From assembly GCF_011045215.1 (NCBI RefSeq), contig NZ_CP049202.1: a DNA stretch of 64,000 nucleotides; one strand, given 5' to 3'. A model generated the notes under the pieces. That model was given only the letters and a program-made list of their open reading frames with translations, had not been told where the DNA came from and ran no database searches. The position numbers were made by a program, and so were the translations under genes. Shown here in pieces: positions 37,583-53,577 of this stretch. How positions within the stretch are numbered: position 1 is the first letter of the stretch; every line of letters starts with the position of its first letter. The DNA is from Escherichia coli. GTDB taxonomy: Bacteria; Pseudomonadota; Gammaproteobacteria; Enterobacterales; Enterobacteriaceae.

Positions 37583-37960
37583 AACACACCTTATTTATCT
37601 TCCTAAACAAACAATATGTTTTCGTGCTCTCTATTCTTCACCTTACGACGAATCGCCATTAGATTCATCATACTAAAATTACGATTCACTATACGAATCA
37701 GCAATCATCAAATGACGAATCTAATATAGATTCACGCGCCAAGTAAATAGATGTTTTCAAAAAAATAGTCATTACTGAATCATTGACAATTCGTGATAGA
37801 TTCACTATCGAATCTATCACGAATCCCTGCAATATAATTCAAAATTATATAATATAAATACACTTCATTAATTACATGATTTAAAACACAAATCAGCAAA
37901 AACTTGTTTTTGCGTGGGGTGTGGTGCTTTTGGTGGTGAGAACCACCAACCTGTTGAGCC
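37583..37960 (+). other. oriT: oriT region; nic predicted between 37922 and 37923 on the + strand
   Basis: TTTGCGTGGGGTGT|GGTGCTTTTGGTGGTGAGAACCACCAACCTGTTGAG equals the F-type TraI nic/binding sequence as recalled. The AT-rich region carries gattc/gaatc repeat motifs. Confidence 0.85.
37793..37820. promoter_or_regulatory. Inverted repeat, candidate TraM binding site (sbm-like) / traM operator
   Basis: gtgatagattc-actatc-gaatctatcac. Related half-sites recur between 37650 and 37830. Confidence 0.5.
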
Positions 37961-38013: not shown

Positions 38014-38523
38014 ATGAAAAAATGGATGTTAGCCATCTGCCTGATGTTTATAAATGAGATCTGCCATGCCAATGATTGCTTTGATCTTTCAGGCCGGGAT
38101 TACAAAATAGATCCTGATTTACTGAGAGCAATATCATGGAAAGAATCCCGTTACCGGGTTAATGCCATCGGTATTAATCCGGTAACGGGATATGGCAGCG
38201 GACTGATGCAGGTAGATTCCCAGCATTTTAACGAACTGGCCCGCTATGGAATTAATCCGGAACATCTGACAACAGATCCCTGCATGAACATTTATACCGG
38301 TGCTTATTATCTGGCAATAGCCTTTAAAAAATGGGGCGTCTCCTGGGAGGCCGTTGGTGCATACAATGCCGGATTCAGGAAGACCGAACGCCAGAACCAG
38401 AGACGTCTTGCCTACGCATCAGATGTTTACCGGATTTATACCGGGATAAAAAGCAGTAAAGGTATCCGGATTCCGGCCACGAAGAAATCACTTCCGGAAA
38501 TTAACAGCGTGCAGAACAATTAA
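38014..38523 (+). CDS. Lytic transglycosylase (F orf169 / R1 gene 19 family), 169 aa
   Basis: Signal peptide plus the SLT motif AISWKESRY...GLMQV...AYNAG. It is the first gene next to oriT. Confidence 0.88.
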
Positions 38524-38768
38524 TCTTACAGACATTGTCAGATACCGGTTATGCCGCAAAAGCGGCATGGAAGGCCACACACAAAAATATCATATGAGTG
38601 ACAATACTGACTGGCCGAAGCCCCGCGAAGCGGGAACCCATCTTATATATACCCGGTAACTGCGCAGCCTCCTGCCAGACCATTTTTCGCGGGCACAATA
38701 TTTACAGACAACCGGAAAGCCAGTTGATGAAATTGAGGTATATCAGACGACACAGCGATGCCGAAGAA

Positions 38769-38821
38769 TGATAATATAAGTAAAGCCCCGAAAATTTTTC
38801 GGGGCTTTACTTATATTATCA
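38769..38821. terminator. Perfect 26-bp inverted repeat (bidirectional terminator-like)
   Basis: tgataatataagtaaagccccgaaaa / t / ttttcggggctttacttatattatca. The right arm contains the natural stop of the DUF932 reading frame. Confidence 0.6.
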
Positions 38822-39640
38822 TGACTTCCACTTTCTGAACTGTTCGGCAATCACCCATAACGCCTTGTTGATTCTTATATCACCATCAATACCTGTAATG
38901 GCTCTTGTCCTAGTATTTTTCCCGGAGGCACTTTGCCCCGATCATCCACCTTTTATCATATTCTCCTGAACCCGCTGCCAGGTTGTCCAGAGATCGTTCT
39001 GTTTATCCTCCCAACGATGGGGAGTAATTATCTGTTCAGGCGTCACTGGCGTTTTATTTTCATCTTCATACCTGACCATCAGTGCAGCTCTGCTAAATAA
39101 ATGTTGCTCGTCACTGTTAAGATGAATTTCTTTCATCGCCTCCATATTATCAGTGACCTTATCAAAGATACCGAGTACTTCATACGCTCCCTCGATAACC
39201 TGCTCGACAATATCACCTTTATGTGGAACGCGGATTTCGCCAAAATTATTTCCGCACACCAGGCCATTTGTGCAGACAAAACGAAAAATTCCGGGGATCA
39301 TCTGATAACTGGATGAACCATCATGTGAATTAAGCAGGATAATTTCAGGAACTTCCTGCCCGTTAATATGCCCTTCCCTGCGAAGACGTAACATATGTTT
39401 ACTGTATTCGCGACGTCCCAAATCACGAACCCGACTCTGACAGGCAAAGAATGGCTGGAAACCTTCATCACGTAACTTATTGATGATATTGATTGTTGGA
39501 ATATACGTATAACGTTCACTCCGGGACTCATGTTTATCACCGGAAAATACCGAAGGCACGAACTGCATTAATTCATCATCCGTTAAAGGACGTTCACGGC
39601 GGATGGAATTATACCGACCAAAACGGGAAGCTAATCGCAT
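38819..39640 (-). pseudogene. DUF932 (YfjQ-like) gene with an in-frame opal codon
   Basis: MRLASRFGRYNSIRRERPLTDDELMQFVPSVF... resembles E. coli YfjQ. TGA at 38942-38944 is followed in frame by 40 conserved-looking codons (SGQSASGKNTRTRAITGIDGDIRINKALWVIAE...). Total 274 codons. Confidence 0.75.
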
Positions 39641-39758
39641 AACAGCTACTCCTTTATGAAAGAATAAATTTAATAAAAAATTTTTCCGCTTAATATCATC
39701 CCTCCTGGTCACCATTAACAAGATTGCAACAATCAGGAGGAATATTCATCACATCCAG

Positions 39759-40045
39759 TCAGCAGATCGCCCGGATATCGAGGCCGGCACGCTTAATCTG
39801 ACGCAGGAACTGTTTGAAGTGATCGGCTTCCGCAATGTTGATATGGCGGAACTGCGTATCCACACCCCGGCTGAGCGCGTAGCTATAGCTGAAGGCCATC
39901 TTTTCCGGGTGGCTTTTGCGATATTTTTTCAGCTCAGTCAGGCTGCTGAATTCTAGGACGTCCCACTCTTCCCCGGTGTTTTTTTCTTCCCGGCAACAAG
40001 AAGCGTGTACGACGCGGTGTTAACGTGGATATTTCGGGTACTCAT
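39759..40045 (-). pseudogene. Frameshifted small leading-region gene (95 aa if restored)
   Basis: MSTRNIHVNTASYTLLVAGKKK, then a frame change at the A7/T7 tract 39979-39985, then ...EEWDVLEFSSLTELKKYRKSHPEKMAFSYSYALSRGVDTQFRHINIAEADHFKQFLRQIKRAGLDIRAIC. Length 287 nt. Confidence 0.55.
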
Positions 40046-40066
40046 CCTGCTTTCTCCTCTCTCTGG

Positions 40067-40620
40067 TTTTCAGCCCCCATCATCTTTTGAGTTTCGGGAG
40101 CCGCGGTTTTGACGTTTTGCGGGGACCTGCCTTTTGTTCCCTCCGGTATTCACCATCATCTTTTTGAGAACCTTCGCCGCAAGGGGCATCACTGCCACGG
40201 CCGGAAACGACTGTCCGGGGGCAGACCGCAAAAGTTTTTGCCTGCTTCTGGGCAAAAACTTTTGCGGGATGTGCATTTCACCCCTGGACTGGCGGAGACG
40301 GTTGTGGCTGTATCAGCCCCCGGCGACAGGGGATTAAACAGGTGAATGGCACCGGACAGAACAACGGGCAGGGACCCGCCGCAGCGACGTGAAGCGCGGT
40401 TTGCGAAACGGCGTTGCCCCTTACATCCCGGCGGCCTTTTGCCGGGATGCCGGGAGCGCAGGCCACGGCGCGACAGAGGCGGCGCGACCGGAACGGTCGC
40501 TGCAAGCCCGGGGTTTCGCGTCAGGGATGGAAGCCCGCCAGGGCGGAGACAGCTTCGCTGGCTCCGTTCACGACAGCCCGCCCCGCCAGGGGGACGCCCG
40601 GAAAAGGCATAAGCAGGAGA
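40067..40620. repeat. Direct repeat copy A (~554 bp), GC-rich structured non-coding element
   Basis: Near-identical to 45462-46018. Spurious ORF peptides from the two copies differ by single residues. Confidence 0.9.
40121..40377 (-). promoter_or_regulatory. Frpo/ssi-like long imperfect hairpin in the T-strand (candidate ssDNA promoter, minus-sense output)
   Basis: Perfect 16-bp apical stem 40227-40242/40251-40266. The arms stay partly complementary for ~120 nt (ggtgaataccgga vs ggtgaatggcaccgga; gaacaaaaggcaggtcccc vs gaacaacgggcagggaccc). Confidence 0.6.
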
Positions 40621-40915
40621 ACAACAAAACAGACAATAATCAGGGCAGCAGTAATCAGAGTCAGAACAGGAGGAAAAAGAGAATAATCAAAGGGAAGGTG
40701 ATGTGATTTCTGACAGGTCATAAACAGAGAAGGCGGGGGAAAAGAACGGGCGCCGCAGGCGCACGTTCATCCCCGTTCCCGGAGGGAAACGGCCTTCCTG
40801 GCAGTCTGGTTGTTCATGCCCGTACAATGCCAGCAAGGAGAAAGGGGCCACCGGCGAACCAGCAGCCCCTTTATAAAGGCGCTTCAGTGCAGTCAGACCA
40901 GCATCAGCCCTGAAA

Positions 40916-40935
40916 AGGCGGGCCTGCGCCCGCCT
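40916..40935 (-). terminator. Hairpin plus U-run just 3' of hok
   Basis: aggcgggc-ctgc-gcccgcct with a flanking A4 on the + strand (U-run in minus sense). Confidence 0.5.
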
Positions 40936-40943
40936 CCAGGTTG

Positions 40944-41102
40944 CTACTTACCGGATTCGTAAGCCATGAAAGCCGCCACCTCCCTGTATCCGTCTCTGTA
41001 ACGAATCTCGCACAGCGATTTTCGTGTCAGATAAGTGAATATCAACAGTGTGAGACACACGATCAACACACACCAGACAAGAGAGCTGCGTGGTAGTTTC
41101 AT
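40944..41102 (-). CDS. hok: Hok membrane toxin, 52 aa
   Basis: [52 protein letters not shown] matches Hok as recalled. Confidence 0.95.
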
Positions 41103-41160
41103 GGCCTTCTTCTCCTTGCGCAAAGCGCGGTAAGAGGCTATCCTGATGTTGTCTAAGCAT
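40948..41160 (-). CDS. mok: Mok (modulator of killing) overlapping reading frame, 70 aa
   Basis: 70-aa ORF overlapping hok in another frame, as in hok/sok loci. Confidence 0.75.
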
Positions 41161-41206
41161 GCAGGGGCCTCGTGGGTTAATGAAAAATTAACTACGGGGC
41201 TTTTGT
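41148..41206 (+). ncRNA. sok: Sok antisense RNA (approximate)
   Basis: Promoter TTGCGC-17 nt-TATCCT at 41116-41144. Antisense to the mok start. Hairpin then TTTT at 41201-41204. Confidence 0.5.
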
Positions 41207-41376
41207 CCTTCTGCCACACAACACGGCAACAAACCACCTTCACGTCATGAGGCAGAAAGCCTCAAGCGCCGGGCACATCATAGCCCATATCCCTGCACGC
41301 TGACCACACTCACTTTTCCTGAAAATAATCCGCTCATTCAGGCTGTTTACGGGTAATCTGTGTGATTGTTGCCGCA

Positions 41377-42096
41377 TCACGCTGCCTCCCGGAGTTTGTT
41401 CGGCACCATCCACCGCTCCATCTCACGGACAGCGTGACCGGCCTCTCTTGCTGCAAGACTGGCTTCCGCAATAACCTGCCAGAACGGCATATCCTGCCAC
41501 TGCCAGCGTTCCATTCCGGACAGTGACGGAAAACGCTCGCCCCACTGCCAGAACAGGGTTTCCAGGTCATGCTCTGCCACCCGGTCACTCCAGCGTGCAT
41601 GCCAGCTTCCGACTGTTTCCGGCGAATGGAATGCCAGTTCGATTTCAGCCTGAGCGACCAGCTCCTGGTACGCACGGGCTTTCTGCTCTGCCTCCCGTGC
41701 CTGCTGGCGGCTGTACTTCTGCATGACCAGCGCGGATTTATGGCGACTGCGCTCCCTGACACGAAACCGCACCGACGGAAACAACCGCTCTGCTGCATCA
41801 CCGGGAAGGGGAAGGAGGCAGACCTCGCCCTGTATTTCAATCAGCACATCGATGACATACAGCCACTGAAGACGGTTGCCGTGCAGTTCTTCTGCGGTCA
41901 GGGACGGCATGAAAAATCGCAGGTCAGACAGCGATATCCTGCGGCTTCCGTTCAGACAGCGGAAAAACGCCCCCGCATACGGATATTCCGCCAGCGTGTT
42001 ACCCTGATGGCGGCGTTTTTCTGTCTCCGCCACCGCCCGCCATGCGGCCTGTTGCTCTGTGCTGAGCGGAACCAGTGCCTGTGAACGTACGCTCAT
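41377..42096 (-). CDS. psiA: PsiA, 239 aa
   Basis: Size and position downstream of psiB; start overlaps the psiB stop. Confidence 0.85.
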
Positions 42097-42530
42097 ACCT
42101 GACCTCCTTCCGCCATCAGGATATGGATGATGTCGTTAACGCTGTACCCTTGCGTATCCAGTGACGCCGCCAGTGCCAGTGAATGGCTGACGGCTTCCGG
42201 TGCAAACCGCCGCTGTACCTGAACCACCGCAAACGGCTCACCACCGGCATTCACCAGAACCAGCACCCAGACCTGAGAGACATCGCCCGGTGAACATAAC
42301 GCCAGGTGAAAACGTTCGTGGGCAGGCGTGAAACGGACCTGGACGGGGAAAAAGCCGCCAAACTCGCTGCCGTACTCGCCGTTCATCGTCCAGTTATCCG
42401 GCGCATCCAGCTCCCGCATCACGGCGTGAGTCAGCTCACGGCGTTCATCACTTCCGGCAGCCCGGATATCTTCATATTCCTGTGCGTTCATGGTCTGTAA
42501 TACATTCAGGGTCAGTTCAGTTTTCATCAC
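42093..42530 (-). CDS. psiB: PsiB plasmid SOS-inhibition protein, 145 aa
   Basis: [46 protein letters not shown]... matches PsiB as recalled. Confidence 0.9.
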
Positions 42531-42581
42531 GGTATCTCCCTTGCTGCCGCCCCGTCTCCGGCGGGGCGGTGTGGTTGTTCA

Positions 42582-44540
42582 TCAGGCGGCATCAGCCAGG
42601 TTATCGGTGCGTTCAGTGGCATCCGTCTGTGGGCGTGGTGCACACATCCAGCCAGGCACCCAGCGGTTGTCTTTCATGTGGAACTCTGCATGTTCAGCCG
42701 CATCGCCTTTCTTCATCTTCTCCGCGTCCCGTGCAGCACCGGACAGTCCTGCCTCATTCAGGGCTGCGATAATCTGCGGCTTTTTCAGGTGTCCGAAGAA
42801 GTTTGCTTTTGTCGGCTGCCACCAGTCGCGCATGTGAAAGCCGATGGCGCTTTCCAGCGAATCCAGCGGACTGCGTGACGTGTGACCATACTCACGGGTC
42901 TGAACACCGTGGATGCTGCACGCAGTGCAGAAACTGAGCAGGGACAACAGCACCTCCTGACTGAGTGACAGGAACGTCGCCATGTCCCGTGACCATCCCT
43001 CCGGTAACAGGGCCGCAAGACGGGCTTTTTCTGCCATCATCGCCATGAACGCGGCACCTTCCTTCCCTGACGGCGCATCGCTGGTCAGCGAATAATGTTT
43101 ACATTCCAGGCTGATTTGTGCTGGTTTACTGTACGCTCCGCTGCCAAACACATTCAGGCAGAGCGTCCATGCCAGCAGTGCCAGAGATTTGTCCGGTTGC
43201 TGCATGAGTGCTGTCTGGACTGCCAGCGTGCGTTCGGAAGACATTTTCGTCAGCAGTGGCAGACTGATTTCCTCCACTGATGCTTTCTCCTGCACCTGTT
43301 CCGTGCGGTCAGCGTCATCAGTCGCGTCATCTTCACTGCGCAACTGCACACCACGCTGGACACATACGTTTCCATAACGCCAGGACACCACCACGCCACT
43401 TCCGGCACGCATCTCCGGCGTCCACGCCCTGACCTTCGCCATGCAGTCAATCAGCTTCATTTCTGCTTCCAGCAGGTCGGATTCCTCACACTGATTTTCC
43501 AGCGCGTCGTAACGTGCCATCAGTTCGTTCAGGCGTTCTTCTTCCGCCTCCGTCAGCACAGCTTCCGGCTCCGGCAGACTGCGGTATGTTCCGGCATCCT
43601 CACGGCAGAAACCGACAGGCTCCATACGTCCAGCACACCATTCCCAGCCTTCGGCTTCCCGAAGGTGTTCAGCAACAGCCTGGAGTTTTTCCAGCAGGGC
43701 GGCATCGAGCGCCACGCAGTCCACATAGCCACCCTCGTTGTCGCTGAACAAATCGGTGCGCAGTTCATCTGGCGAGAAGGCATCAGCCCCCACGAAGCGG
43801 AATTTACTGTTCCCCGCCACCACCACTTCACTTTCGGTCACCAGACGACGAATGGTCTGTACTTCCGGTTTTCCGCCCCATCCCGACTGACAGGCAGCTT
43901 CAAACACCTGTACCTGACGTGCGGTGTCGTTCTCCAGCGCCAGCGCCTGACAGTGCTCTGTGGTGATGCGGTCTTCTGCCAGCGCATCGAGGATGACAGG
44001 CGCAAGGTCAGCCAGTTTCAGCATTCGCTGAACGTGGCGGGGTGAATAGCCCAGCAAATCACCGATTTGTGCAGGTGTTTTGCCTTCCTGCGCCATTGCG
44101 CGGAATCCGGCAATCTGTTCGGCAGGGTGCATATCCCGACGATGACCGTTTTCAGTCATTGATGCGGCAGTCGCCAGTTCCTGCGGAATGACCTTCACAC
44201 GGACAGGCCAGTCAGCCGGAATGATGCCACGCTCTGCCAGCATGTTGAGTGCTGCCAGTCGGCGACCACCTGCGGCGACACCGTGGCGGTCACCTGGCAG
44301 GGCATGAACAACCAGATTCTGTAACAGGCCGACACCTTTAATGGAGTCCGCCAGTTCGCTGACGGACTCCGCAGAATACGGCACCGTGCGCACATTCAGC
44401 GGTGACTTAATCAGTGAGGACAGCGGCACGCTCACTTCCTCCGTCTGCGCCAGCAGGGCAGACAGGGCAGTCTCCTGCTCTTTTGACGGTTTACGGCTGG
44501 ATTTACGCTCCGTTTTTGTCTTAGACTCTGTAACTGACAT
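42582..44540 (-). CDS. ParB/Srx-domain (ParB-like nuclease) leading-region protein, 652 aa
   Basis: The N-terminal region LNVRTVPY...GLLQNLVV...GGRRLAAL plus an HTH segment is typical of the ParB N-terminal domain. The long C-terminal extension is unrecognised. Confidence 0.75.
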   Translation of the reverse strand: MSVTESKTKTERKSSRKPSKEQETALSALLAQTEEVSVPLSSLIKSPLNVRTVPYSAESVSELADSIKGVGLLQNLVVHALPGDRHGVAAGGRRLAALNMLAERGIIPADWPVRVKVIPQELATAASMTENGHRRDMHPAEQIAGFRAMAQEGKTPAQIGDLLGYSPRHVQRMLKLADLAPVILDALAEDRITTEHCQALALENDTARQVQVFEAACQSGWGGKPEVQTIRRLVTESEVVVAGNSKFRFVGADAFSPDELRTDLFSDNEGGYVDCVALDAALLEKLQAVAEHLREAEGWEWCAGRMEPVGFCREDAGTYRSLPEPEAVLTEAEEERLNELMARYDALENQCEESDLLEAEMKLIDCMAKVRAWTPEMRAGSGVVVSWRYGNVCVQRGVQLRSEDDATDDADRTEQVQEKASVEEISLPLLTKMSSERTLAVQTALMQQPDKSLALLAWTLCLNVFGSGAYSKPAQISLECKHYSLTSDAPSGKEGAAFMAMMAEKARLAALLPEGWSRDMATFLSLSQEVLLSLLSFCTACSIHGVQTREYGHTSRSPLDSLESAIGFHMRDWWQPTKANFFGHLKKPQIIAALNEAGLSGAARDAEKMKKGDAAEHAEFHMKDNRWVPGWMCAPRPQTDATERTDNLADAA

Positions 44541-44603
44541 ATATTTCTCCTTTGACCGGGATGGTTGTATGTCTGCCGGACGCGTTCCCGTCCGGCACCT
44601 CTC

Positions 44604-45439
<836 letters not shown>

Positions 45440-45461
45440 GATGTGTCTCCTTCTGTTGATG

Positions 45462-46018
45462 TTTTCAGCCCCCATCATCTTTTGAGTTTCAGGAGCCGCG
45501 GTTTGACGTTTTGCGGGGACCTGCCTTTTGTTCCCTCCGGTATTCACCATCACCTTTTTGAGAACCTTCGCCGCAAGGGGCATCACTGCCACGGCCGGAA
45601 ACGACTGTCCGGGGGCAGACCGCAAAAGTTTTTGCCTGCTTCTGGGCAAAAACTTTTGCGGGATGTGCATTTCACCCCTGGACTGGCGGAGACGGTTGTG
45701 GCTGTATCAGCCCCCGGCGACAGGGGATTAAACAGGTGAATGGCACCGGACAGAACAACGGGCAGGGCCCCGCCGCAACGACGGAGAGCGCGTGCGCGAA
45801 ACGGCGTTGCCCCTTACATCCCGGCGGCCTTTTGTCGGGATGCCGGGAGCGCAGGCCACGGCGCGACAGAGGCGGCGCGACCGGAACGGTCGCTGCAAGC
45901 CAGGGTTTCGCGTCAGGGATAGAAGCCCGCCAGGGCGGAGACAGCTCCGCTGGCTCCGTTCACGACAGCCCGCCCCGCCCCGCCAGGGGGACGCCCGGAA
46001 AAGCCATAAACAGGAGAG
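45462..46018. repeat. Direct repeat copy B (~557 bp) immediately upstream of ssb
   Basis: Near-identical to 40067-40620. Confidence 0.9.
45515..45770 (-). promoter_or_regulatory. Frpo/ssi-like long hairpin, copy B (candidate ssDNA promoter for ssb-psiB-psiA)
   Basis: Apical perfect stem 45621-45636/45645-45660. The arms are as in copy A. Confidence 0.6.
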
Positions 46019-46022
46019 GAAC

Positions 46023-46075
46023 GGAAAGAAGAGGAAGAGGAAAAAGAAAAAGAAGAAGAAGAAGAAGAAGAAGAA
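46023..46075. repeat. 53-nt all-purine tract containing (AGA)8 microsatellite
   Basis: ggaaagaagaggaagaggaaaaagaaaaagaagaagaagaagaagaagaagaa. Confidence 0.9.
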
Positions 46076-46252
46076 CAATAACAAGCACGGTAACCACAGA
46101 AAAATAACATCAGAAAAAAACATTCCGGACACATCACAAACAGGAAGGGTAACGGGCGACGCGTCAGCGTGGCCCGCTTCCCTTCCGGCAGGCGTCAGCC
46201 TGCCAGGGGTTTTCGCGCGGGCTGACAGGCGGCCTCCACCGCCTGCCCTGTA

Positions 46253-46444
46253 TCACCTGTTTCTGCTGCCCTGAAGGATGTACTGACCGCCGAGGAATAC
46301 AGCCTGCTGATTCGCCACAAAATCGCAGATTTCATCAACAATCTGCGCCGTGGTGAGCGGTTTCTGCCCCATTTCACGACGTCGTGCATTAATCACAGCT
46401 TTGTAATTACGCAGAATTTCGCGGGTTTCCGTGCTGATATTCAT
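46253..46444 (-). CDS. Hypothetical small protein, 63 aa
   Basis: ATG overlaps the stop of the upstream 139-aa ORF. Confidence 0.5.
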   Translation of the reverse strand: MNISTETREILRNYKAVINARRREMGQKPLTTAQIVDEICDFVANQQAVFLGGQYILQGSRNR

Positions 46445-46863
46445 TACCCGTTCTCCCCGTCCAGCGCCTGACGCATCACCCGCATAATCTCACGTTCTTC
46501 CCTGACAAATGCGTCACCGTCGCCCCCGTTCTCGCTCCCGACAGCATGGAGGCGATAAATTTCACTACCAGCCATCACCATCACTTTTTCCAGCAGCACC
46601 GCAGGGACTGTTACAAGACGGTTTACGCGCTTTTCCTCCATCAGTTCATTGACAATATCGGAAACAACTCTGTCACATGCGCCATATACAAAAGCATCGT
46701 CCAGCCGCTGCATGACGGTTTCCAGCTCATCGTCTGTCAGACTCCAGTCCTGGGCTATGTGACGCACATCCCCACGGGTCAGCACCACGGCAAAAACGCA
46801 TTCACTGTCCGGCACGTCTGTATCCAGTACATCGCGAATGATTTCTTTAACAGTACAGTACAT
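46444..46863 (-). CDS. DUF1380-like leading-region protein, 139 aa
   Basis: Paralogous to 48567..49001 (shared MY.T, SLTD.E..TV, R.VTVPA.LL). SD GGAGACGAGAAC. Confidence 0.6.
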   Translation of the reverse strand: MYCTVKEIIRDVLDTDVPDSECVFAVVLTRGDVRHIAQDWSLTDDELETVMQRLDDAFVYGACDRVVSDIVNELMEEKRVNRLVTVPAVLLEKVMVMAGSEIYRLHAVGSENGGDGDAFVREEREIMRVMRQALDGENG

Positions 46864-46909
46864 GTTCTCGTCTCCTTTACAGGGGCGGCATTGCCGCCCC
46901 GTCCGTTAA

Positions 46910-47335
46910 TCAGTCCAGTGCCGCGTAAATCGCGTTGCATTCAGGGTGAAATTCGATGTGACGCCACAACTGCGCATCACGCATCCGGTAAAGCTGAGTC
47001 AGCCCCGCATCACCGCTGTCGTGGTACAGCCACAACTGACGGTTAATCACAAGGGAAGTCAGAATGACACCTGCGGCATCAGCACTCACAGTACGGTCAA
47101 ACCAGTTTGCACCGTTCACCATGTGGAAACGGTCGCCATCCGGCATCATGTAACCGCCACCGTCCGGCAGGCGGATGAAGTGCCAGAATCCGCCTTCATA
47201 TTCCGGCATCATTTTTTTCGCCAGCGCGTATACAGACGCTTCGGCATACAGAAAATCCTGGCCAAACAGGTAAGGCAGAAAAGACAGACGGTCGCACTCT
47301 TCAACGTTCAGAGTGACAGATTTCGCATATTGCAT
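46910..47335 (-). CDS. klcA: KlcA/ArdB-family antirestriction protein, 141 aa
   Basis: Size, leading-region location and overall sequence ([32 protein letters not shown]...) fit KlcA/ArdB as recalled. Confidence 0.75.
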
Positions 47336-47374
47336 GATGTTTTCCTCCGTTGTTCACATATTCCGCGACACCGG

Positions 47375-47606
47375 GCGGTGCCGTGCCTCCATAAAAGCCG
47401 GGCGATAAGGCGGGGATGCAGGGGCGCAAGGGAAGCCGCAGCCTGACGCACACGGCTGACGGGAGTTGGAGGGTGAGACCGCGAAATCTGAGCGGGTGAA
47501 CGACCGGAAAATCACGGCAGACGGGAAGAAAGGACCGGGTGACCGCAGCGGCAAAGCGTACCCTTGCATCCCTGCCAGCCCGGCTAAGATGGAGGCACGG
47601 CACAGC
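47375..47606 (-). promoter_or_regulatory. Long imperfect hairpin in the T-strand upstream of klcA (candidate ssDNA promoter/ssi)
   Basis: Arm 47375-47403 (gcggtgccgtgcctccataaaagccgggc) pairs with 47578-47606 (gcccggctaagatggaggcacggcacagc). The inner arms ggggatgcaggggcgcaaggg / cccttgcatccctgcc also pair. Confidence 0.55.
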
Positions 47607-47751
47607 CCGCACACGACGCTGAGGCCACATAACTGAAAAACCACAAGGCCATGCCCTGCATGGCCGGGTAAAGCGGAGCCGGCGGCGACTTCCTTTGTGC
47701 TCTGTCCGGGGACCGGCAGGAAAAAGGCGGGGATTTACCCCGCCAACGTCA

Positions 47752-48522
47752 TCATTTCCGGATTTTTGCCAGGGCATCCGCCATGCTGCGGATTTCGGCC
47801 CGGGCTTCCCGGACCACCTCCCGCAGAACACCACGGTCAAACCAGCGGCGGGGCGGTTCATCCGGTATACGCAGCACATCGCAGGCCAGCCCACTGGACA
47901 GGATATGCTCAATACAATCGCTGACCAGGTACATTTCCACCGACGAAAAACGTGCTCCCCGGTTCACGATGGCATCGAGCACCACGGGCAGGTTTTCGTC
48001 ATCTTCATCGAGCCAGCAGGGGTGATCGCTTTCCTTCACAACCAGACGAAAGCGGCGCGTCTGGCGGGTCAGCAACGTCTGACCGGTGGTGGTCAGCGCC
48101 GCCCGGATACGCCGCGCATCGTCTGCCACCTGGTAACAGATGCTTCGTATTGCATCGCGCACCGCCGCAAGTACAGCCCTGATTTCGTCTTCTGCCAGCC
48201 ACTCACCGGCATACGGGAAAGACACCTGCGTTCCGTCTGCCGGAAGTACCGGCAGCGACTGCCACTGACTGCCGGACAGAACAAGTTCCGCCCCGGTTCC
48301 GGTCAGTTTCTGAATGGCAGAGGCCAGGTGCGGCGGCAGTACGCCGCCGTGACGGTTGATAAGTAACGTCGCCAGCCGGGGCGTATCCAGCCGCACGTAA
48401 ATGCTGATCCAGCCCGGATGGTTCGGATTTCGCTGGTCAACATCCGTCTCTTCCGGCCAGCCCTGCGCCAGCAGCAGGTTACGGGCGTGGCGACAAATCA
48501 GTGCATTCAGCGTTTCGTTCAT
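47752..48522 (-). CDS. Hypothetical leading-region protein, 256 aa
   Basis: Good SD (GGGAGACC). No recognised motif. Confidence 0.6.
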
Positions 48523-48566
48523 GATTCATGGTCTCCCTGAATCGCCGCCCGCAGGCGGCGATAACA

Positions 48567-49001
48567 TCAGTCGTTTTCGCGTGTGTTGTTTTTCAGCAGG
48601 GCGCGGGCCTGATTAACCACCGCCAGTCGGCGGGTGACGCATTCCGGGACGACGAGGCCGTTATCACGGGCGGCCCACTCACGTTTCCACAGTGCCTGTT
48701 CAGCGGTCTGAATCAGGGACGCCAGCAGTTCAGCAGGGACGGTCACCTGGCGGTTTTCGCTCACGTTGCTGATAATCTCCATCACCGCGGCGGAAGAAAT
48801 ACCGGATTCAGTCCTCTGGTCTTCCGGGATGTCCTCCATGCGCGCCAGGACGGTCCTGATTTCATGATCGGTCAGAGAAATTTCCATACCGTCAGCCAGT
48901 GCCTGAATCTCTTCCGGAGACCAGATAACCAGCATCAGCGGCGTGTCTCCCGGATACTTTGCTGCCAGCTCCCGGCAGAGCGTTTCGCATGTTCCGTACA
49001 T
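48567..49001 (-). CDS. DUF1380-like leading-region protein, 144 aa
   Basis: Start MYGTCETL with SD AAGGAGACGAGA. Paralog of 46444..46863. Confidence 0.6.
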   Translation of the reverse strand: MYGTCETLCRELAAKYPGDTPLMLVIWSPEEIQALADGMEISLTDHEIRTVLARMEDIPEDQRTESGISSAAVMEIISNVSENRQVTVPAELLASLIQTAEQALWKREWAARDNGLVVPECVTRRLAVVNQARALLKNNTREND

Positions 49002-49014
49002 TCTCGTCTCCTTC

Positions 49015-49236
49015 TCAATCTTTAAAGCACGCATCCAGTTCCAGAATTTCGGTATATGCCTCCATCAGGAGGCGGTTTGCGCGAAACAACGTCTGACGCA
49101 CCAGACGTTCCGGCAGGGTGTCAGCATTAAAGCTGTACCGCCGCTCCATCTCATTCATGGTTGTACGCAGGTCGCACATGGCATTGGCCACCTCCGCCAC
49201 TTCGGCGCGAAGTTTTTCGTGTCCGGCATAGTTCAT
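49015..49236 (-). CDS. Hypothetical small helical protein, 73 aa
   Basis: ORF directly abutting the methyltransferase stop. Confidence 0.5.
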   Translation of the reverse strand: MNYAGHEKLRAEVAEVANAMCDLRTTMNEMERRYSFNADTLPERLVRQTLFRANRLLMEAYTEILELDACFKD

Positions 49237-49920
49237 TTACGCAGCCTCCGGCATAAACCAGTCATCATTCGCGGCCCCCTGCTGCATGGCCCGTTGCACG
49301 GCGGCAAGGCGTTGCTGCCCGGCACGGTGATACTGCTCAAGCAGCTCGATACCGATATACCGGCGTCCGGACTGGAGGGCGGCGACGCAGGTTGAGCCGC
49401 TGCCTGCAAACGGGTCCAGCACAATTGCGTTCGGGTGTGTGAAGCTCTCAATCAGCGGTTGCAGGCTGGTAACGGGCTTTTCCGTCGGGTGATGGCGATT
49501 GCCCGAATATTTCCAGCCCAGCACGTCCGGCGGCGGGTTTTGTGGCAGACGTGGACGGCCTTTTGCCAGGATGTAGGCGCATTCGTGGCGATAGCCCACA
49601 TATGCGGCCTTCGATGTGTAGTTTTTGGTGAAGACCAGGTGACCAACAACGCTGAATCCCGCATTTTTCCAGGCGGCAATAAAGCGATCGACGCGGTTCC
49701 AGCCATAGAAGCTCACCATTAACGCGTCTTTTTTCAGCACGCGGTACATCTCATTACAGGCCGGTTGCAGCCATTCATCGGTTTTATCTCCGGCGATGGT
49801 GCGCCCGGAACGGTCACGAAAACCGACGAGATATGGCGGGTCAGTTAATATGAAATCAATGGCGTTATCAGGGATACGCGTCATAACATCGATGCAGTTA
49901 CCAAGAACAAAACGGGACAT
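49237..49920 (-). CDS. Orphan DNA methyltransferase (DPPY N6-A/N4-C class), 227 aa
   Basis: Motif IV LTDPPYL near the N-terminus and motif I VLDPFAGSGST near the C-terminus. No adjacent endonuclease gene. Confidence 0.85.
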   Translation of the reverse strand: MSRFVLGNCIDVMTRIPDNAIDFILTDPPYLVGFRDRSGRTIAGDKTDEWLQPACNEMYRVLKKDALMVSFYGWNRVDRFIAAWKNAGFSVVGHLVFTKNYTSKAAYVGYRHECAYILAKGRPRLPQNPPPDVLGWKYSGNRHHPTEKPVTSLQPLIESFTHPNAIVLDPFAGSGSTCVAALQSGRRYIGIELLEQYHRAGQQRLAAVQRAMQQGAANDDWFMPEAA

Positions 49921-49980
49921 AATAACGCTCCTTCTCTTACAGAGGGCACCGGGAGGGCACCCCTGTGGTGCCCGTTCCCC

Positions 49981-50202
49981 GCTGCCTGTGGGCTGTTCAC
50001 CGCGTCCGGTAACGGGTCAGGCCGACCGTGGAATATCGCAGCCGTCGTCTTTTTGACGGCGAGAATATGCCGCGAAAGCGGCTTGAAGGGCGTTCATCAG
50101 AAAAGGGCGACAGGCTGGCGTACACTGTCACCGGTACCAGCCGGGAGCAGTAAAAGCGCCCGTCCCGTGCCCGCCGGACGCGGGACACTGACCACAGGCA
50201 GC
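49981..50202 (-). promoter_or_regulatory. Long imperfect hairpin in the T-strand upstream of the methyltransferase gene (candidate ssDNA promoter/ssi)
   Basis: gctgcctgtgggctgttcaccgcgtccgg (49981-50009) is complementary to ccggacgcgggacactgaccacaggcagc (50174-50202). Confidence 0.5.
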
Positions 50203-50271
50203 GTTCCTGCCGCGCCGCGTCAGCCGGCGCAGTAAAAAGAGGAGCACGGCGACATCCTTTGTCGGAAAAGA

Positions 50272-50293
50272 AACGGGCGGTTGCCCGCCCGTC
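50272..50293 (-). terminator. Rho-independent terminator after the DUF1281-like gene
   Basis: In minus sense: gacgggcgg-gcaa-ccgcccgt followed by TTCTTTTCC. Confidence 0.6.
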
Positions 50294-50304
50294 TCCGTCA
50301 TACT

Positions 50305-51231
50305 TCATCCGCCATAATGCGCCACATTGTCGACTATCCACGCAGGTCCGGTGACTTCCGGCAGCTCATCGTCATCTGTCGGGGAAGAGCATTCCAGTTC
50401 CCCCCACAGCACATCAACGAGCTCTCCGCGCTCATACAACTGCCAGCCACAGAAATTGCAGCCCTGTTCGGCGTACCAGTGCTCCAGCGTGCAGCCGAAA
50501 CGGCGGCTTAATTCTGCAACAACGTTGCTTTCCGGCTGACACCACGGCGTGTCGAAATCCACCTGAATGAAGTTGTCTCCCTGACGGCTGATATTCACCT
50601 CATACCTCACAGGCCACTTCACGCCATACTGTTCCGTATACCAGTGATACGCAGAAGGAACACCGTTCAGAACACCACCGTTAAAGCCATTCACTTCAAC
50701 ATCCAGGCGGGTGGGCAGAACCGTCAGCAGGTCAAACGGCATGGTTTTTTCCGGCAGTACATTGTCACACAGACGGTTCCACCACACCGATACATCCTCG
50801 TTACTCCAGAAGCCACACCAGTCACCTCTTTTGGCGGTGAAATGCACGGTGATGGTTTCTCTGACCTCATCCGGTAATCCTTCCCAGCGACGCTGGCCAG
50901 TACCACTCTGCAGCCAGAGTTCATGCAGCATCAGGCAGTTTTGCTCATCCAGCAGTACACCGTCCTGCAGGTATGTCAGCCAGCGGGTGAACGCGATATT
51001 CTCCGGCGATACAACACCACGTCCGGCAGCCGTCAGTCCGGGGCACGGTTCAAACTGCACATCTTCAGTGGTCTGCAGAAGTCCGGCACTTCCGGCCAGA
51101 AATAGCTGAATACCTTCATTTGTGGCGCGGCGATAAAGCGGTATGACTGCACCGCTGGCCAGTCGTTTAATCTCAGCGATCTGTGCCGGTTCACCAGAAA
51201 AATACATACGATTCGAGCACCAGTTTAGCAT
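50305..51231 (-). CDS. DUF1281-like leading-region protein, 308 aa
   Basis: Start MLNWCSNRMYFSGEP with SD GGAGAATTCCC. The family assignment is from memory of similar YubB/YfjI-type proteins. Confidence 0.55.
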   Translation of the reverse strand: MLNWCSNRMYFSGEPAQIAEIKRLASGAVIPLYRRATNEGIQLFLAGSAGLLQTTEDVQFEPCPGLTAAGRGVVSPENIAFTRWLTYLQDGVLLDEQNCLMLHELWLQSGTGQRRWEGLPDEVRETITVHFTAKRGDWCGFWSNEDVSVWWNRLCDNVLPEKTMPFDLLTVLPTRLDVEVNGFNGGVLNGVPSAYHWYTEQYGVKWPVRYEVNISRQGDNFIQVDFDTPWCQPESNVVAELSRRFGCTLEHWYAEQGCNFCGWQLYERGELVDVLWGELECSSPTDDDELPEVTGPAWIVDNVAHYGG

Positions 51232-51263
51232 GGGAATTCTCCTCTCACATGCGGCCTCCATCA

Positions 51264-51424
51264 GGCCGTGCCGCACCTGTAACCGGGCGACCGCATACGA
51301 ATGCAGGTGCGGCCCCGAAGCCGCAGCGCGTGGAGGAGGAACGACGAAACGTGACCGGGTGAGGAGGCCTGCGACAGCGACACACTTGCATCGGATGCAG
51401 CCCGGTTAACGTGCCGGCACGGCC
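51264..51424 (-). promoter_or_regulatory. Long imperfect hairpin in the T-strand upstream of the DUF1281-like gene (candidate ssDNA promoter/ssi)
   Basis: ggccgtgccgcacctgtaaccgggc (51264-51288) pairs with gcccggttaacgtgccggcacggcc (51400-51424). The inner pair is gcatacgaatgcaggtgcg / cacacttgcatcggatgc. Confidence 0.55.
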
Positions 51425-51554
51425 TGGGTAACCAGGTATTTTGTCCACAGAACCGTGCACAAAATGCTGTGGATAAGCTGGACACAACAGTCCACAGCAG
51501 GCATACAGCCACACTCTCAGAGAATTGAGCGTTTTTTAGTCACAATAATGACAT

Positions 51555-51603
51555 TTGACTGTGTGTGGATTCAGTTATTAGAATACTGTATATACATACA
51601 GCA
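51555..51603 (+). promoter_or_regulatory. imp promoter with LexA (SOS) box
   Basis: TTGACT (51555-51560), 18-nt spacer, TAGAAT (51579-51584). TACTGTATATACATACAGCA at 51584-51603 fits CTGT-N8-ACAG. Confidence 0.85.
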
Positions 51604-51624
51604 AAAGAAAAGGGAGATGAGAAC

Positions 51625-51873
51625 ATGATCCGCATTGAAATTCTTTTCGACCACCAGAGCACAAAAAACCTCAAATCAGGCACACTTCAGGCGCTACAGA
51701 ATGAAATCGAACAACGTCTGAAACCACACTACCCGGAAATCTGGCTACGTATAGACCAGGGCAGCGCCCCGTCTGTATCTGTCACTGGAGCCCGCAACGA
51801 CAAGGATAAAGAACGTATCCAGTCTCTGCTGGAAGAAATCTGGCAGGACGACAGCTGGCTGCCCGCAGCATGA
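51625..51873 (+). CDS. impC: ImpC (DinI-like) protein, 82 aa
   Basis: MIRIEILFDHQSTKNLKSGTLQALQNEIEQRL... is DinI-family. It is the first gene of a three-gene operon with UmuD/UmuC homologs. Confidence 0.85.
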   Translation: MIRIEILFDHQSTKNLKSGTLQALQNEIEQRLKPHYPEIWLRIDQGSAPSVSVTGARNDKDKERIQSLLEEIWQDDSWLPAA

Positions 51874-52307
51874 GTACCGTTTATCACCGTCCGGCTGACC
51901 CTTCAGGCGATGACAGTTACGTGCGACCGTTGTTTGCCGATCGTTGCCAGGCCGGTTTTCCTTCGCCTGCCACTGATTATGCTGAGCAGGAACTGGATCT
52001 GAACAGCTATTGCATCAGCAGACCTGCAGCCACCTTCTTTCTGCGCGCCAGCGGTGAATCGATGAACCAGTCTGGCGTGCAGAATGGTGATCTGCTGGTA
52101 GTGGACAGGGCCGAAAAACCACAACACGGGGACATCGTTATCGCTGAGATCGACGGTGAGTTCACCGTCAAACGACTGCTGTTGCGCCCACGCCCGGCAC
52201 TGGAGCCGGTTTCAGACAGCCCGGAGTTCCGCACACTGTATCCGGAAAACATCTGTATTTTTGGTATTGTCACTCACGTGATACACAGGACGCGGGAGTT
52301 ACGCTGA
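51870..52307 (+). CDS. impA: ImpA (UmuD-like), 145 aa
   Basis: LexA/UmuD-type S24 peptidase region (GESM...K). Overlaps impC and impB. Confidence 0.88.
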   Translation: MSTVYHRPADPSGDDSYVRPLFADRCQAGFPSPATDYAEQELDLNSYCISRPAATFFLRASGESMNQSGVQNGDLLVVDRAEKPQHGDIVIAEIDGEFTVKRLLLRPRPALEPVSDSPEFRTLYPENICIFGIVTHVIHRTRELR

Positions 52308-53577
52308 TGTTTGCACTGGCTGATATCAACAGTTTCTACGCCTCATGTGAAAAAGTTTTCCGCCCGAACCTTCGCAACGAACCGGTCATCGTACTCAGCA
52401 ATAACGATGGCTGTGTGATCGCGCGCAGCCCGGAGGCAAAAGCCCTTGGCATCAGAATGGGGCAGCTCTGGTTTCAGGTGAGACAAATGCGCCTGGAGAA
52501 GAAAATACATGTATTTTCCAGCAATTATGCGCTGTACCACAGCATGAGCCAACGGGTTATGGCTGTTCTGGAGTCGCTTTCTCCCGCAGTTGAGCCCTAC
52601 TCAATTGATGAAATGTTCATTGATTTGCGGGGGATAAATCATTGCATCTCTCCGGAGGTTTTTGGTCATCAGCTCAGGGAACAGGTAAAGAGCTGGACAG
52701 GACTCACCATGGGGGTGGGCATTGCGCCTACAAAAACGCTGGCTAAAAGTGCACAGTGGGCAACAAAGCAATGGCCACAGTTTTCCGGTGTGGTCGCGCT
52801 GACGGCAGAAAACCGTAATCGGAGCTTGAAGCTACTGGGGCTGCAGCCAGTTGGTGAGGTCTGGGGAGTAGGACGCAAACTGACGGAAAAGCTGAATGCG
52901 CTGGGTATTAACACAGCACTGCAACTGGCGCAGGCTAACACGGCATTCATCCGGAAAAACTTCAGCGTCATTCTTGAGCGTACGGTACGCGAACTCAACG
53001 GCGAGTCCAGCATATCCCTGGAAGAAGCACCACCGGCAAAACAGCAGATTGTCTGTAGTCGCAGTTTTGGTGAACGAATCACAGACAAAGATGCCATGCA
53101 CCAGGCTGTTGTTCAGTATGCAGAGCGGGCCGCAGAGAAACTACGTGGGGAGCGTCAGTATTGTCGGCAGGTGACGACATTTGTACGGACATCCCCCTTT
53201 GCAGTAAAAGAACCCTGTTACAGCAATGCCGCTGTGGAAAAGCTTTCATTGCCACACAGGACAGCCGGGACATTATTGCCGCCGCATGCAGAGCCTTAAA
53301 CCATGTCTGGCGTGAAGGGTACCGCTATATGAAGGCAGGAGTCATGCTGGCTGATTTCACACCATCGGGTATAGCGCAGCCGGGATTATTTGATGAAATC
53401 CAGCCCCGTAAAAACAGTGAAAAGTTAATGAAAACACTCGATGAACTGAACCAGTCGGGAAAAGGGAAAGTGTGGTTTGCGGGGCGAGGAACCGCCCCTG
53501 AATGGCAAATGAAACGGGAAATGCTATCGCCTTCGTATACAACACAATGGACTGAGATCCCCATTGCTTCATTCTGA
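52307..53577 (+). pseudogene. impB: impB (UmuC-like Y-family polymerase) with a single-nt frameshift
   Basis: MFALADINSFYASCEKVF.... The frame switches near 53252-53258, between AAVEKLSLP and TQDSRDIIAAA. 1271 nt, which is 1 nt short of 424 codons. Confidence 0.8.

Follow-up and report, generated by a model that had tools for sequence, protein, structure and literature searches.

Why should a stretch of enterobacterial DNA carry nearly all of its genes on one strand, in tightly packed blocks, with a long hairpin before each of them? The question is raised by the segment from 37.9 to 51.5 kb of a 64,000-nucleotide (nt) stretch of Escherichia coli contig NZ_CP049202.1 (assembly GCF_011045215.1), the whole of which is called the window here and is numbered from its first letter. 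An earlier note, made from the sequence alone, had read the segment as an island of genes that are expressed early during conjugation from the entering single strand, are punctuated by hairpins and are rich in anti-restriction, anti-SOS and single-stranded DNA (ssDNA) handling functions. This central reading is supported by experiments on the orthologous regions of F and of pESBL/ColIb-P9. With a probability of about 0.93, a conjugative plasmid of the F-like type (IncFIA/FIB, MOBF) has its leading region in this segment, which is gene-for-gene orthologous to that of F, and the explanation of its layout by hairpin promoters of early expression is held with the same high confidence.

The assignment to the F family follows from close and more distant relatives. 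The 13.4-kb leading stretch is 99.7% identical to dozens of ~89-kb E. coli plasmids typed IncFIA/FIB, MOBF and MPF_F, and the F plasmid (NC_002483, 66201 to 52569) gives a single 13.7-kb collinear alignment with the window at 94.7% identity. The F leading region (about 52.6-66.2 kb) has the same gene order and orientation, the same nic site and five hairpins at the same junctions, with proteins that are 77-99% identical. On the low-coordinate side of the nic site the window continues with traM, the FinP/traJ 5′ untranslated region and the tra operon. The nic site itself, with a slash at the nick, is the following.

37916-37930, plus strand: core of the oriT nic site, GGGGTGT/GGTGCTTT, the exact F motif and the sole match without a mismatch in the 64-kb window.

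The nick, which from F oriT we take to lie between 37922 and 37923, sets the polarity of the whole region. The F relaxase stays bound to the 5′ end at the nick, and the recipient receives that end first. Since the F nic motif stands on the plus strand, this strand is the transferred strand (T-strand), which enters 5′ to 3′ toward higher coordinates, and genes on the minus strand therefore use the T-strand as template and are transcribed toward oriT. Between ygeB and the DUF1281 gene, both included, all 17 real protein genes are on the minus strand and the sole plus-strand gene is orf169, so that the earlier statement of a strand-polarised region, transcribable from the entering strand, is borne out by annotation and Pfam from 38.8 to 51.2 kb. 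Inside the blocks the genes overlap or are 0-65 nt apart; five large intergenic gaps (384-900 nt) each hold one hairpin.

From oriT outward, these hairpins are:

40066-40625, plus strand: Repeat A (Frpo1/ssp1a), class 1, with its hairpin core at 40091-40409 and a fold of -101.5 kcal/mol, upstream of ygeA-ygeB.
45461-46022, plus strand: Repeat B (Frpo2/ssp1b), class 1, with its hairpin core at 45486-45802 (z = -7.6), upstream of ssb-yfjA-yfjB-psiB-psiA.
47372-47609, plus strand: ssp2, class 2 ssDNA promoter hairpin (z = -6.5), upstream of klcA.
49980-50203, plus strand: ssp3, class 3 ssDNA promoter hairpin (z = -4.8), upstream of the M.EcoGIX-type methylase gene.
51262-51426, plus strand: H5, the fifth of the hairpins, a class 2/ssp2 paralogue of reduced length, which stands 30 nt before the start of the DUF1281 gene.

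Fold z-scores were obtained for the plus strand as ssDNA against dinucleotide shuffles. The last three elements (arms 47372-47403/47578-47609, 49980-50009/50174-50203 and 51262-51288/51400-51426) are the best three long-range inverted repeats in the 64-kb window, and the five hairpins stand where the earlier note had put them, the inverted repeats agreeing with its coordinates within 1-3 nt. In a GC-corrected folding scan of the 64 kb with a width of 320 nt, the hairpins of Repeats A and B rank first and second (z -5.8 and -5.7), ssp3 fourth, ssp2 seventh and H5 only 15th, as it is diluted by the scan width. All five hairpins fold better on the plus strand than on its complement, by 14, 6.2, 10.3, 2.0 and 1.1 kcal/mol, and they measure 110-175 nt between the basal arms or ~320 nt overall. 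Consensus sigma-70 sites for double-stranded DNA are not enriched in the region (12 versus 8.8 +/- 2.8 expected), and a scan of the region found none directly upstream of any block. The combination of hairpins and polarity is confirmed as real and well beyond chance. Where the T-strand serves as template and is read toward lower coordinates, a hairpin that rebuilds a promoter supplies its non-template strand in the 3′ (right) arm, running from the loop to the base.

The genes between the hairpins, with one terminator-like site, are:

38014-38523, plus strand: orf169 (gene X), an SLT lytic transglycosylase (Pfam SLT, E = 2.5e-21; annotation of a near-identical plasmid).
38942-39640, minus strand: ygeB, DUF932 (Pfam, E = 1.3e-50), truncated to 232 amino acids.
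39759-40045, minus strand: ygeA, frameshifted, aligned to F ygeA and without a Pfam family.
40944-41271, minus strand: hok/sok-type (flm) toxin-antitoxin module (Pfam HOK_GEF; Rfam sok RF01794, 92.6 bits).
41377-42096, minus strand: psiA (Pfam PsiA), Frpo2 operon.
42093-42527, minus strand: psiB (Pfam PsiB), Frpo2 operon.
42582-44540, minus strand: yfjB/HerB, ParB-like, 652 amino acids (Pfam; ParB/Spo0J relatives in the PDB), Frpo2 operon.
44604-44837, minus strand: yfjA, DUF905 (Pfam), 77 amino acids, Frpo2 operon.
44900-45439, minus strand: ssb (Pfam SSB), Frpo2 operon.
46253-46444, minus strand: orf63, 63 amino acids, without a Pfam family, ssp2 operon.
46444-46863, minus strand: DUF1380-like gene, a weak paralogue (Pfam E = 0.003, under the Pfam cutoff), ssp2 operon.
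46910-47335, minus strand: klcA/ardB, also yfgB (Pfam Antirestrict, E = 7e-26), ssp2 operon.
47726-47744, minus strand: intrinsic-terminator-like site, GGCGGGGTAAATCCCCGCC followed by a T-run, which closes the ssp3 (methylase) operon just before ssp2.
47752-48522, minus strand: orf256, 256 amino acids, without a Pfam family, ssp3 operon.
48567-49034, minus strand: DUF1380 gene (Pfam E = 8e-55), ssp3 operon.
49015-49236, minus strand: orf73, 73 amino acids, without a Pfam family, ssp3 operon.
49237-49920, minus strand: orphan N6_N4_Mtase methyltransferase with a DPPY motif (Pfam), ssp3 operon.
50305-51231, minus strand: DUF1281/Api92-like gene (Pfam DUF1281 and DUF1281_C; PDB 2ijr, E = 1e-46).

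The proteins of the Frpo2 operon (41377-45439) share 94-99% amino-acid identity with their F orthologues; the ssp2 and ssp3 operons, both on the minus strand, span 46253-47335 and 47752-49920. No partner nuclease gene adjoins the DPPY methyltransferase, which shares 94% identity with the M.EcoGIX-locus protein of pESBL. The DUF1281 gene probably starts at the ATG at 51231 (308 amino acids), which is preceded by the Shine-Dalgarno sequence GAGGAG (51241-51246) and can be compared with the pESBL annotation, while the Prokaryotic Genome Annotation Pipeline (PGAP) start in a near-identical plasmid is 51207. The known members that had been named from the translations, KlcA/ArdB, the DPPY methylase, PsiB, SSB, the ParB-like protein, PsiA, DUF932 and DUF1281, are all recovered by Pfam, and smaller corrections concern three further items. 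The pair of DUF1380 paralogues consists of one clear copy and one weak copy (E = 0.003), and as the two proteins are 25-29% identical to each other the label of paralogue is justified. The gene for 77 amino acids, which had been listed as unannotated, is present at its place and now has a family, DUF905. Finally, in the block described as a small gene and DUF932 behind Repeat A, ygeB is indeed DUF932, but the small gene is ambiguous, being either an open reading frame (ORF) of 68 amino acids within the hairpin or the true ygeA, which is frameshifted.

Repeats A and B share 96-98% identity, each with a ~320-nt stem-loop of about -100 kcal/mol; copy B (queried as 45480-45815) is 94.1% identical to Frpo1 of F and 84.8% identical, in the hairpin core, to Frpo2 of F. 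For the F class 1 orthologues, sigma-70 RNA polymerase has been shown to transcribe from ssDNA only, ahead of strand conversion (PMC9849209; Masai and Arai, 1997, as reported in a citing paper). Deletion of Frpo1 or Frpo2 from F abolishes, in transconjugants, the downstream fusion proteins which are normally made before the plasmid becomes double-stranded (PMC9849209).

The class 2 hairpin ssp2 differs in its arms at 1-3 of 32 positions from those that precede klcA in F, ColIb-P9 and pESBL. Its right arm carries TTGCAT (47564), a spacer of 15 nt and TAAGAT (47585), with the AAG of the -10-like hexamer facing AAA of the left arm in a 3-nt bubble; the spacer measures 15 nt on the right arm versus 19 nt on the left arm, which has four extra unpaired bases. 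Judged by inspection, these hexamers, which are oriented toward klcA, would fit a class 2 promoter, and the anatomy appears to be of the kind described in print, where the stem rebuilds the -35/-10 boxes. A start ~7 nt past the -10 would fall near 47384 on the template and would leave a leader of ~50 nt before the klcA ATG at 47335.

The class 3 hairpin ssp3 aligns with few differences to the copies of F and ColIb-P9, and the pESBL arms differ at 1-2 positions, the methylase gene following the hairpin in all three plasmids; in a diverged ssp3-like copy from Salmonella the stem is kept via compensating changes. For pESBL, the published study reports RNA sequencing after elimination of the donor, with starts mapped by rapid amplification of 5′ cDNA ends (5′ RACE) upstream of klcA/ardA and of M.EcoGIX, for the class 2 and class 3 promoters, and states that the hairpins of both classes are conserved in F (Wen, 2025; PMC12672017), as a separate source also notes. 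On F, ssp2 stalls complementary-strand synthesis until UvrD unwinds it, which prolongs early expression and aids against type I restriction (Fraikin, 2026 preprint; bioRxiv 2026.01.09.698686). M.EcoGIX is a single-strand-specific methylase that protects the entering plasmid (Fomenkov et al., 2020). Repeats A and B, ssp2 and ssp3 are thus published elements, for each of which validation in F or in pESBL is on record (Couturier, 2023; Wen, 2025; Fraikin, 2026 preprint).

The hairpin which is not among these elements is H5. It is ~70 nt shorter than ssp2, with which it can be aligned over the basal and middle stems and has in common the basal stem, the left-arm motif GCCGGGCGA, the loop motif CGAAA..TGA.CGGGTGA and the right-arm pattern TTGCAT-N15-TAA..T; in H5 this pattern is TTGCAT-N15-TAACGT, and a bubble contains the -10-like hexamer. 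The hairpin ends 30 nt before the Shine-Dalgarno-led ATG of the DUF1281 gene. It is found at an identity of at least 98% in F (52660-52824, beside sopC), in ColIb-P9, in pESBL and in an IncK plasmid, its arms differing from those of ColIb-P9/pESBL at 1-4 positions, and it occurs in 4400 PLSDB records. Relative to ssp2, five stem pairs are altered on both sides yet paired, and up to 12 once a copy in Pantoea stewartii pCN102 (1789-1969) is included, an H5-like hairpin with the right arm TTGACT-N15-TAACGT before a DUF1281 homologue of 47% identity; across these three independent lineages covariation seems to lend H5 modest support. A Salmonella IncFIB plasmid (CP053403, 3696-3921) instead has a class 3-like hairpin, the basal stem of which is kept by compensating changes, before a DUF1281 homologue of 43% identity. 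As the hairpin class before the DUF1281 homologue differs between Pantoea and Salmonella, hairpin classes and operons have been reshuffled, and this suggests that ssDNA-promoter hairpins may move between operons as cassettes.

Directly distal of H5, at 51441-51497, lies a cluster of DnaA boxes that is conserved in F, ColIb-P9 and pESBL. It comprises a perfect box, TTATCCACA (minus strand, 51476-51468), together with TTGTCCACA (plus strand, 51441-51449) and AGTCCACAG (51489-51497), and on the T-strand it folds into small hairpins with a box in the stem (-13.6 kcal/mol, z = -3.6). Presumably it resembles the priming signals of the 'ABC primosome', in which a DnaA box is presented in a hairpin, and by this analogy the cluster may be a start site of complementary-strand synthesis at the border of the module. 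Farther out, at 51555-53299 on the plus strand, a dinI-like/umuD/umuC′ operon is opposed to the leading genes. Its start is marked by TTGACT-18-TAGAAT (51555-51584), which resembles a sigma-70 promoter, and by the LexA box CTGTATATACATACAG (51587-51602), and its shortened umuC encodes 330 amino acids versus 424 in ColIb-P9.

Taken together with the published work, the region would operate as follows. TraI would nick oriT at 37922/37923, and the plus strand would enter the recipient with its 5′ end first. On this single strand five GC-rich segments (the two class 1 elements, ssp2, ssp3 and the shortened class 2 paralogue) would fold, their stems rebuilding duplex sigma-70 promoter elements while mismatches hold the -10 region open. 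Host RNA polymerase would initiate at the hairpins and transcribe toward oriT, on the T-strand as template, five packed operons: DUF1281; methylase-orf73-DUF1380-orf256; klcA-DUF1380-like-orf63; ssb-DUF905-herB/yfjB-psiB-psiA; and ygeA-ygeB. Of the early products, the M.EcoGIX-type methylase would modify ssDNA by methylation, KlcA/ArdB would block type I restriction, SSB and PsiB would coat ssDNA and damp the SOS response, and HerB would reprogram the host. Synthesis of the complementary strand, which may be primed in part by the hairpin transcripts and be delayed at ssp2 until UvrD has unwound it, would then iron out the hairpins and switch the promoters off.

Several observations weigh against this account and have to be set beside it. 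Anatomy, polarity, homology and conservation of structure were established in this analysis, but promoter activity, timing and protein functions would carry over from the F and pESBL literature, the transcription evidence coming from plasmids other than this one. The promoter anatomy of the class 1 and class 3 hairpins likewise would rest on the literature. When the five hairpins were scanned on both strands for TTGACA-N15-19-TATAAT, no site with at least 7 of 12 matches was present within either class 1 hairpin core, and matches at this level occurred only at 40610-40640, in Repeat A outside the core, where they are unconvincing; simple scans also found no consensus -35/-10 hexamers in ssp3, only the weak candidates GACACT, in the mismatched part of the right arm, and TACACT in the inner branch (TAAAAT in Salmonella). 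As the scans gave weak or no candidates, no promoter boxes are claimed for class 1 and class 3. With respect to H5, the -10-like hexamer TAACGT is weak and the fold has a z of only -2.55. Moreover, pESBL carries H5 upstream of its DUF1281 gene, yet the six pESBL promoters in the accessible part of the publication (three class 1, two class 2 and one class 3; Wen, 2025; PMC12672017) exclude it, and it is not among the named F promoters ssp1a, ssp1b, ssp2 and ssp3. Finally, both Frpo1-controlled genes, ygeA and ygeB, are damaged in the window, so that this block may be non-functional here, unless sequencing errors are the cause.

Among the alternatives, the one that survives best holds that the hairpins are mainly replication signals, either ssi primer sites or roadblocks that time the conversion to double-stranded DNA, with expression as a secondary effect; for H5 this might be the sole role. 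It is improbable as a general explanation, although several facts speak for a part in replication: Frpo transcripts serve as primers of DNA synthesis both in vitro and in vivo, the replisome stalls at ssp2 until UvrD acts, the conserved DnaA-box cluster with its small hairpins is directly beside H5, and H5 is kept in F despite the DUF1281 pseudogene there, while it is outside the induced pESBL operons listed in the accessible part of that work. However, replication and promoter roles are not exclusive; without Frpo1 or Frpo2 the downstream fusions are no longer expressed early, and transcription starts have been mapped for class 1-3 hairpins. At F loci upstream of ssp2 (yfdA, yffB) there is no delay of conversion, so no roadblock at H5 is evident, and H5 keeps its -35/-10-like motifs and the 30-nt distance to the Shine-Dalgarno-led start even in Pantoea.

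Slightly less probable still is that H5 is a decayed and inactive duplicate of ssp2 and that the hairpin with its DUF1281 gene is not a real unit of expression. The shorter length, the weaker -10-like hexamer, the lowest z of the five hairpins together with the low rank in the window scan and the silence on H5 as a promoter in the accessible pESBL and F reports would fit such decay. Against it stand the at least 98% identity across IncF, IncI1 and IncK plasmids and the 4400 records, the Pantoea copy, in which the stem persists although up to 12 pairs are altered on both sides, and which has kept TTGACT-N15-TAACGT before a DUF1281 homologue of only 47% identity, and the end of the homology to F, which comes ~90 nt beyond H5. 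An active role of H5, as promoter and/or as replication signal, has a chance that approaches but does not reach even odds.

Within the hairpin-promoter reading of the region, the block formed by H5 and DUF1281 accordingly stands in part: hairpin and gene are at the places where they had been described, but H5 is outside the published promoter lists, its retention in F before a frameshifted pseudogene argues against promoter activity, and a role as promoter is conceivable by likeness to ssp2. Tentatively, and with somewhat more standing against it than for it, H5 could be a fifth ssDNA promoter, a short class 2 variant driving DUF1281, which marks the border of the module together with the DnaA-box hairpins and might start or time complementary-strand synthesis across the leading region, the hairpin classes being interchangeable cassettes.

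The weakest alternative, that strand bias and inverted repeats are incidental and reflect co-orientation with the tra operon, terminators or scars of mobile elements, is very improbable, since, although the minus strand of the window also carries the tra genes, so that co-orientation alone is not distinctive, and although a real terminator-like palindrome (38768-38822) and a terminator (47726-47744) are present, the large hairpins have no T-runs, lie upstream rather than downstream of the operons and are conserved with compensatory changes, published swaps of position and strand demonstrate an effect of T-strand orientation within the leading region (PMC11541004), and the published deletion and 5′ RACE data on the orthologous hairpins contradict it.

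On the Frpo1 side of the hairpin-promoter reading, the damage to ygeA and ygeB deserves a closer description. In ygeB, a nonsense single-nucleotide change, TTA to TGA at 38943 with respect to a near-identical plasmid, shortens the product from 273 to 232 amino acids with the loss of 41 residues, the full-length frame reaching to 38819; in PLSDB records the nonsense allele is counted 3 times and the sense allele 3665 times. In ygeA, the T-run at 39979-39985 (plus strand) has 7 T versus 8 T in F, which shifts the frame after 22 codons; in the near-identical plasmid pSTEC005 the ygeA T-run is as long as in the window, and the shorter run may reflect slippage, a genuine mutation or an error of sequencing. 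In F, deletion of ygeA cut transfer ~20-fold and a deletion of ygeB was not obtainable (PMC9849209), so that the plasmid is either a natural exception to the need for ygeA and ygeB or carries sequencing errors.

Between ygeB and orf169, at 38768-38822, there is a perfect palindrome of 27+27 nt which overlaps the stop codon of the full-length ygeB frame. It ranks third among the ssDNA structures of the folding scan and looks like a bidirectional terminator.

Two coding sequences that PGAP predicts in near-identical plasmids coincide with hairpins. The ORF of 68 amino acids at 40070-40276 (minus strand, PGAP) is wholly within the left arm of the Frpo1 hairpin and has an odd composition and no family match, and its counterpart at Repeat B is a mere upstream extension of the ssb frame. 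The ORF of 103 amino acids at 49997-50308 (minus strand, PGAP) overlaps the ssp3 hairpin, has an odd, arginine-rich composition and no family match, and its N-terminal frame is lost in F; it is annotated in F, ColIb-P9 and pESBL as well. Both were rejected as genes and are probably annotation artefacts of the long GC-rich hairpins.

What do the remaining genes of the early operons do? The earlier note had seen strong candidates for new anti-defence or establishment factors in the unannotated ORFs, and this idea for leading-region ORFs has already been made in the literature. None of them matched a Pfam family of known function, and scans of nine such proteins gave no PADLOC model and no annotated PHROG, the PHROG matches being to families of 'unknown function' only; for DUF905 and DUF1281 there are solved structures of unknown function (2hjj and 2ijr). 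The protein of orf256, for which Pfam, PADLOC and the PDB gave no sequence match, belongs to a narrow family, a search at E <= 0.001 yielding 178 cluster representatives out of 1.84 billion. From a shallow alignment its model was poor (predicted local distance difference test, pLDDT, of 57), and the Foldseek result obtained with it is meaningless; with a diverse alignment the model reached a pLDDT of 91 and consists of two alpha/beta domains with a long joining helix, for which a fold search in BFVD returned uncharacterised phage proteins only, at E of at least 1e-3. An anti-defence or establishment role would thus be attributed by guilt by association, to which neither homology nor fold adds support. 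The one large protein of this kind studied so far, the zygotically induced YfjB/HerB, reprograms host transcription rather than blocking defence. Nevertheless orf63, orf73, orf256, the two DUF1380 copies, DUF905, DUF1281 and DUF932 are reasonable targets of an anti-defence screen, as others have proposed.

Compared with known systems, the window departs from F at three places: the DUF1281 gene is intact here and frameshifted in F, ygeA is frameshifted and ygeB truncated here whereas both are intact in F, and the distal neighbour is the dinI-umuDC′ operon here and sopC in F. The IncI1 plasmids pESBL-EA11 and ColIb-P9, with the ssDNA promoters ssi1-3 (class 1), klcA/ardA (class 2) and M.EcoGIX (class 3), have the module from DUF1281 to psiA in common with the window, the proteins being 82-99% identical except for PsiA (63%), as well as the dinI-umuDC flank; the arms of the class 2, class 3 and H5 hairpins differ at 1-4 positions. 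In contrast, their relaxase and oriT are different (IncI1 is MOBP), they have one more class 2 copy, which drives ardA, and three class 1 copies, and the F-type block of Frpo1, ygeA, ygeB and orf169 is absent from them.

A survey of leading regions described clusters of anti-defence genes that are oriented along the T-strand, have Frpo-type promoters and are often flanked by an opposed umuDC operon (Samuel et al., 2024; PMC11541004). The window is of this kind: next to oriT on the side transferred first, in the same orientation and with Frpo-type promoters, it has KlcA/ArdB, an orphan methylase, PsiB/PsiA, SSB and hok/sok, all on the minus strand and at most 13.5 kb from nic, and with the opposed dinI-umuDC′ flank there is no difference in kind. 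It is a canonical enterobacterial example behind the concept of the anti-defence island, and its organisation, the mechanism of hairpin promoters and several of the gene functions are already known from F and IncI1, so that no new principle is added.

What the region may add are the conserved H5, outside the published promoter lists, the DnaA-box hairpin cluster at the border of the module and a natural variant with apparent inactivation of ygeA and ygeB, the two genes under Frpo1 control, which are reported to be important for F transfer. Leading regions are being studied actively because the survival of a resistance plasmid during its first minutes in a new host is decided there.

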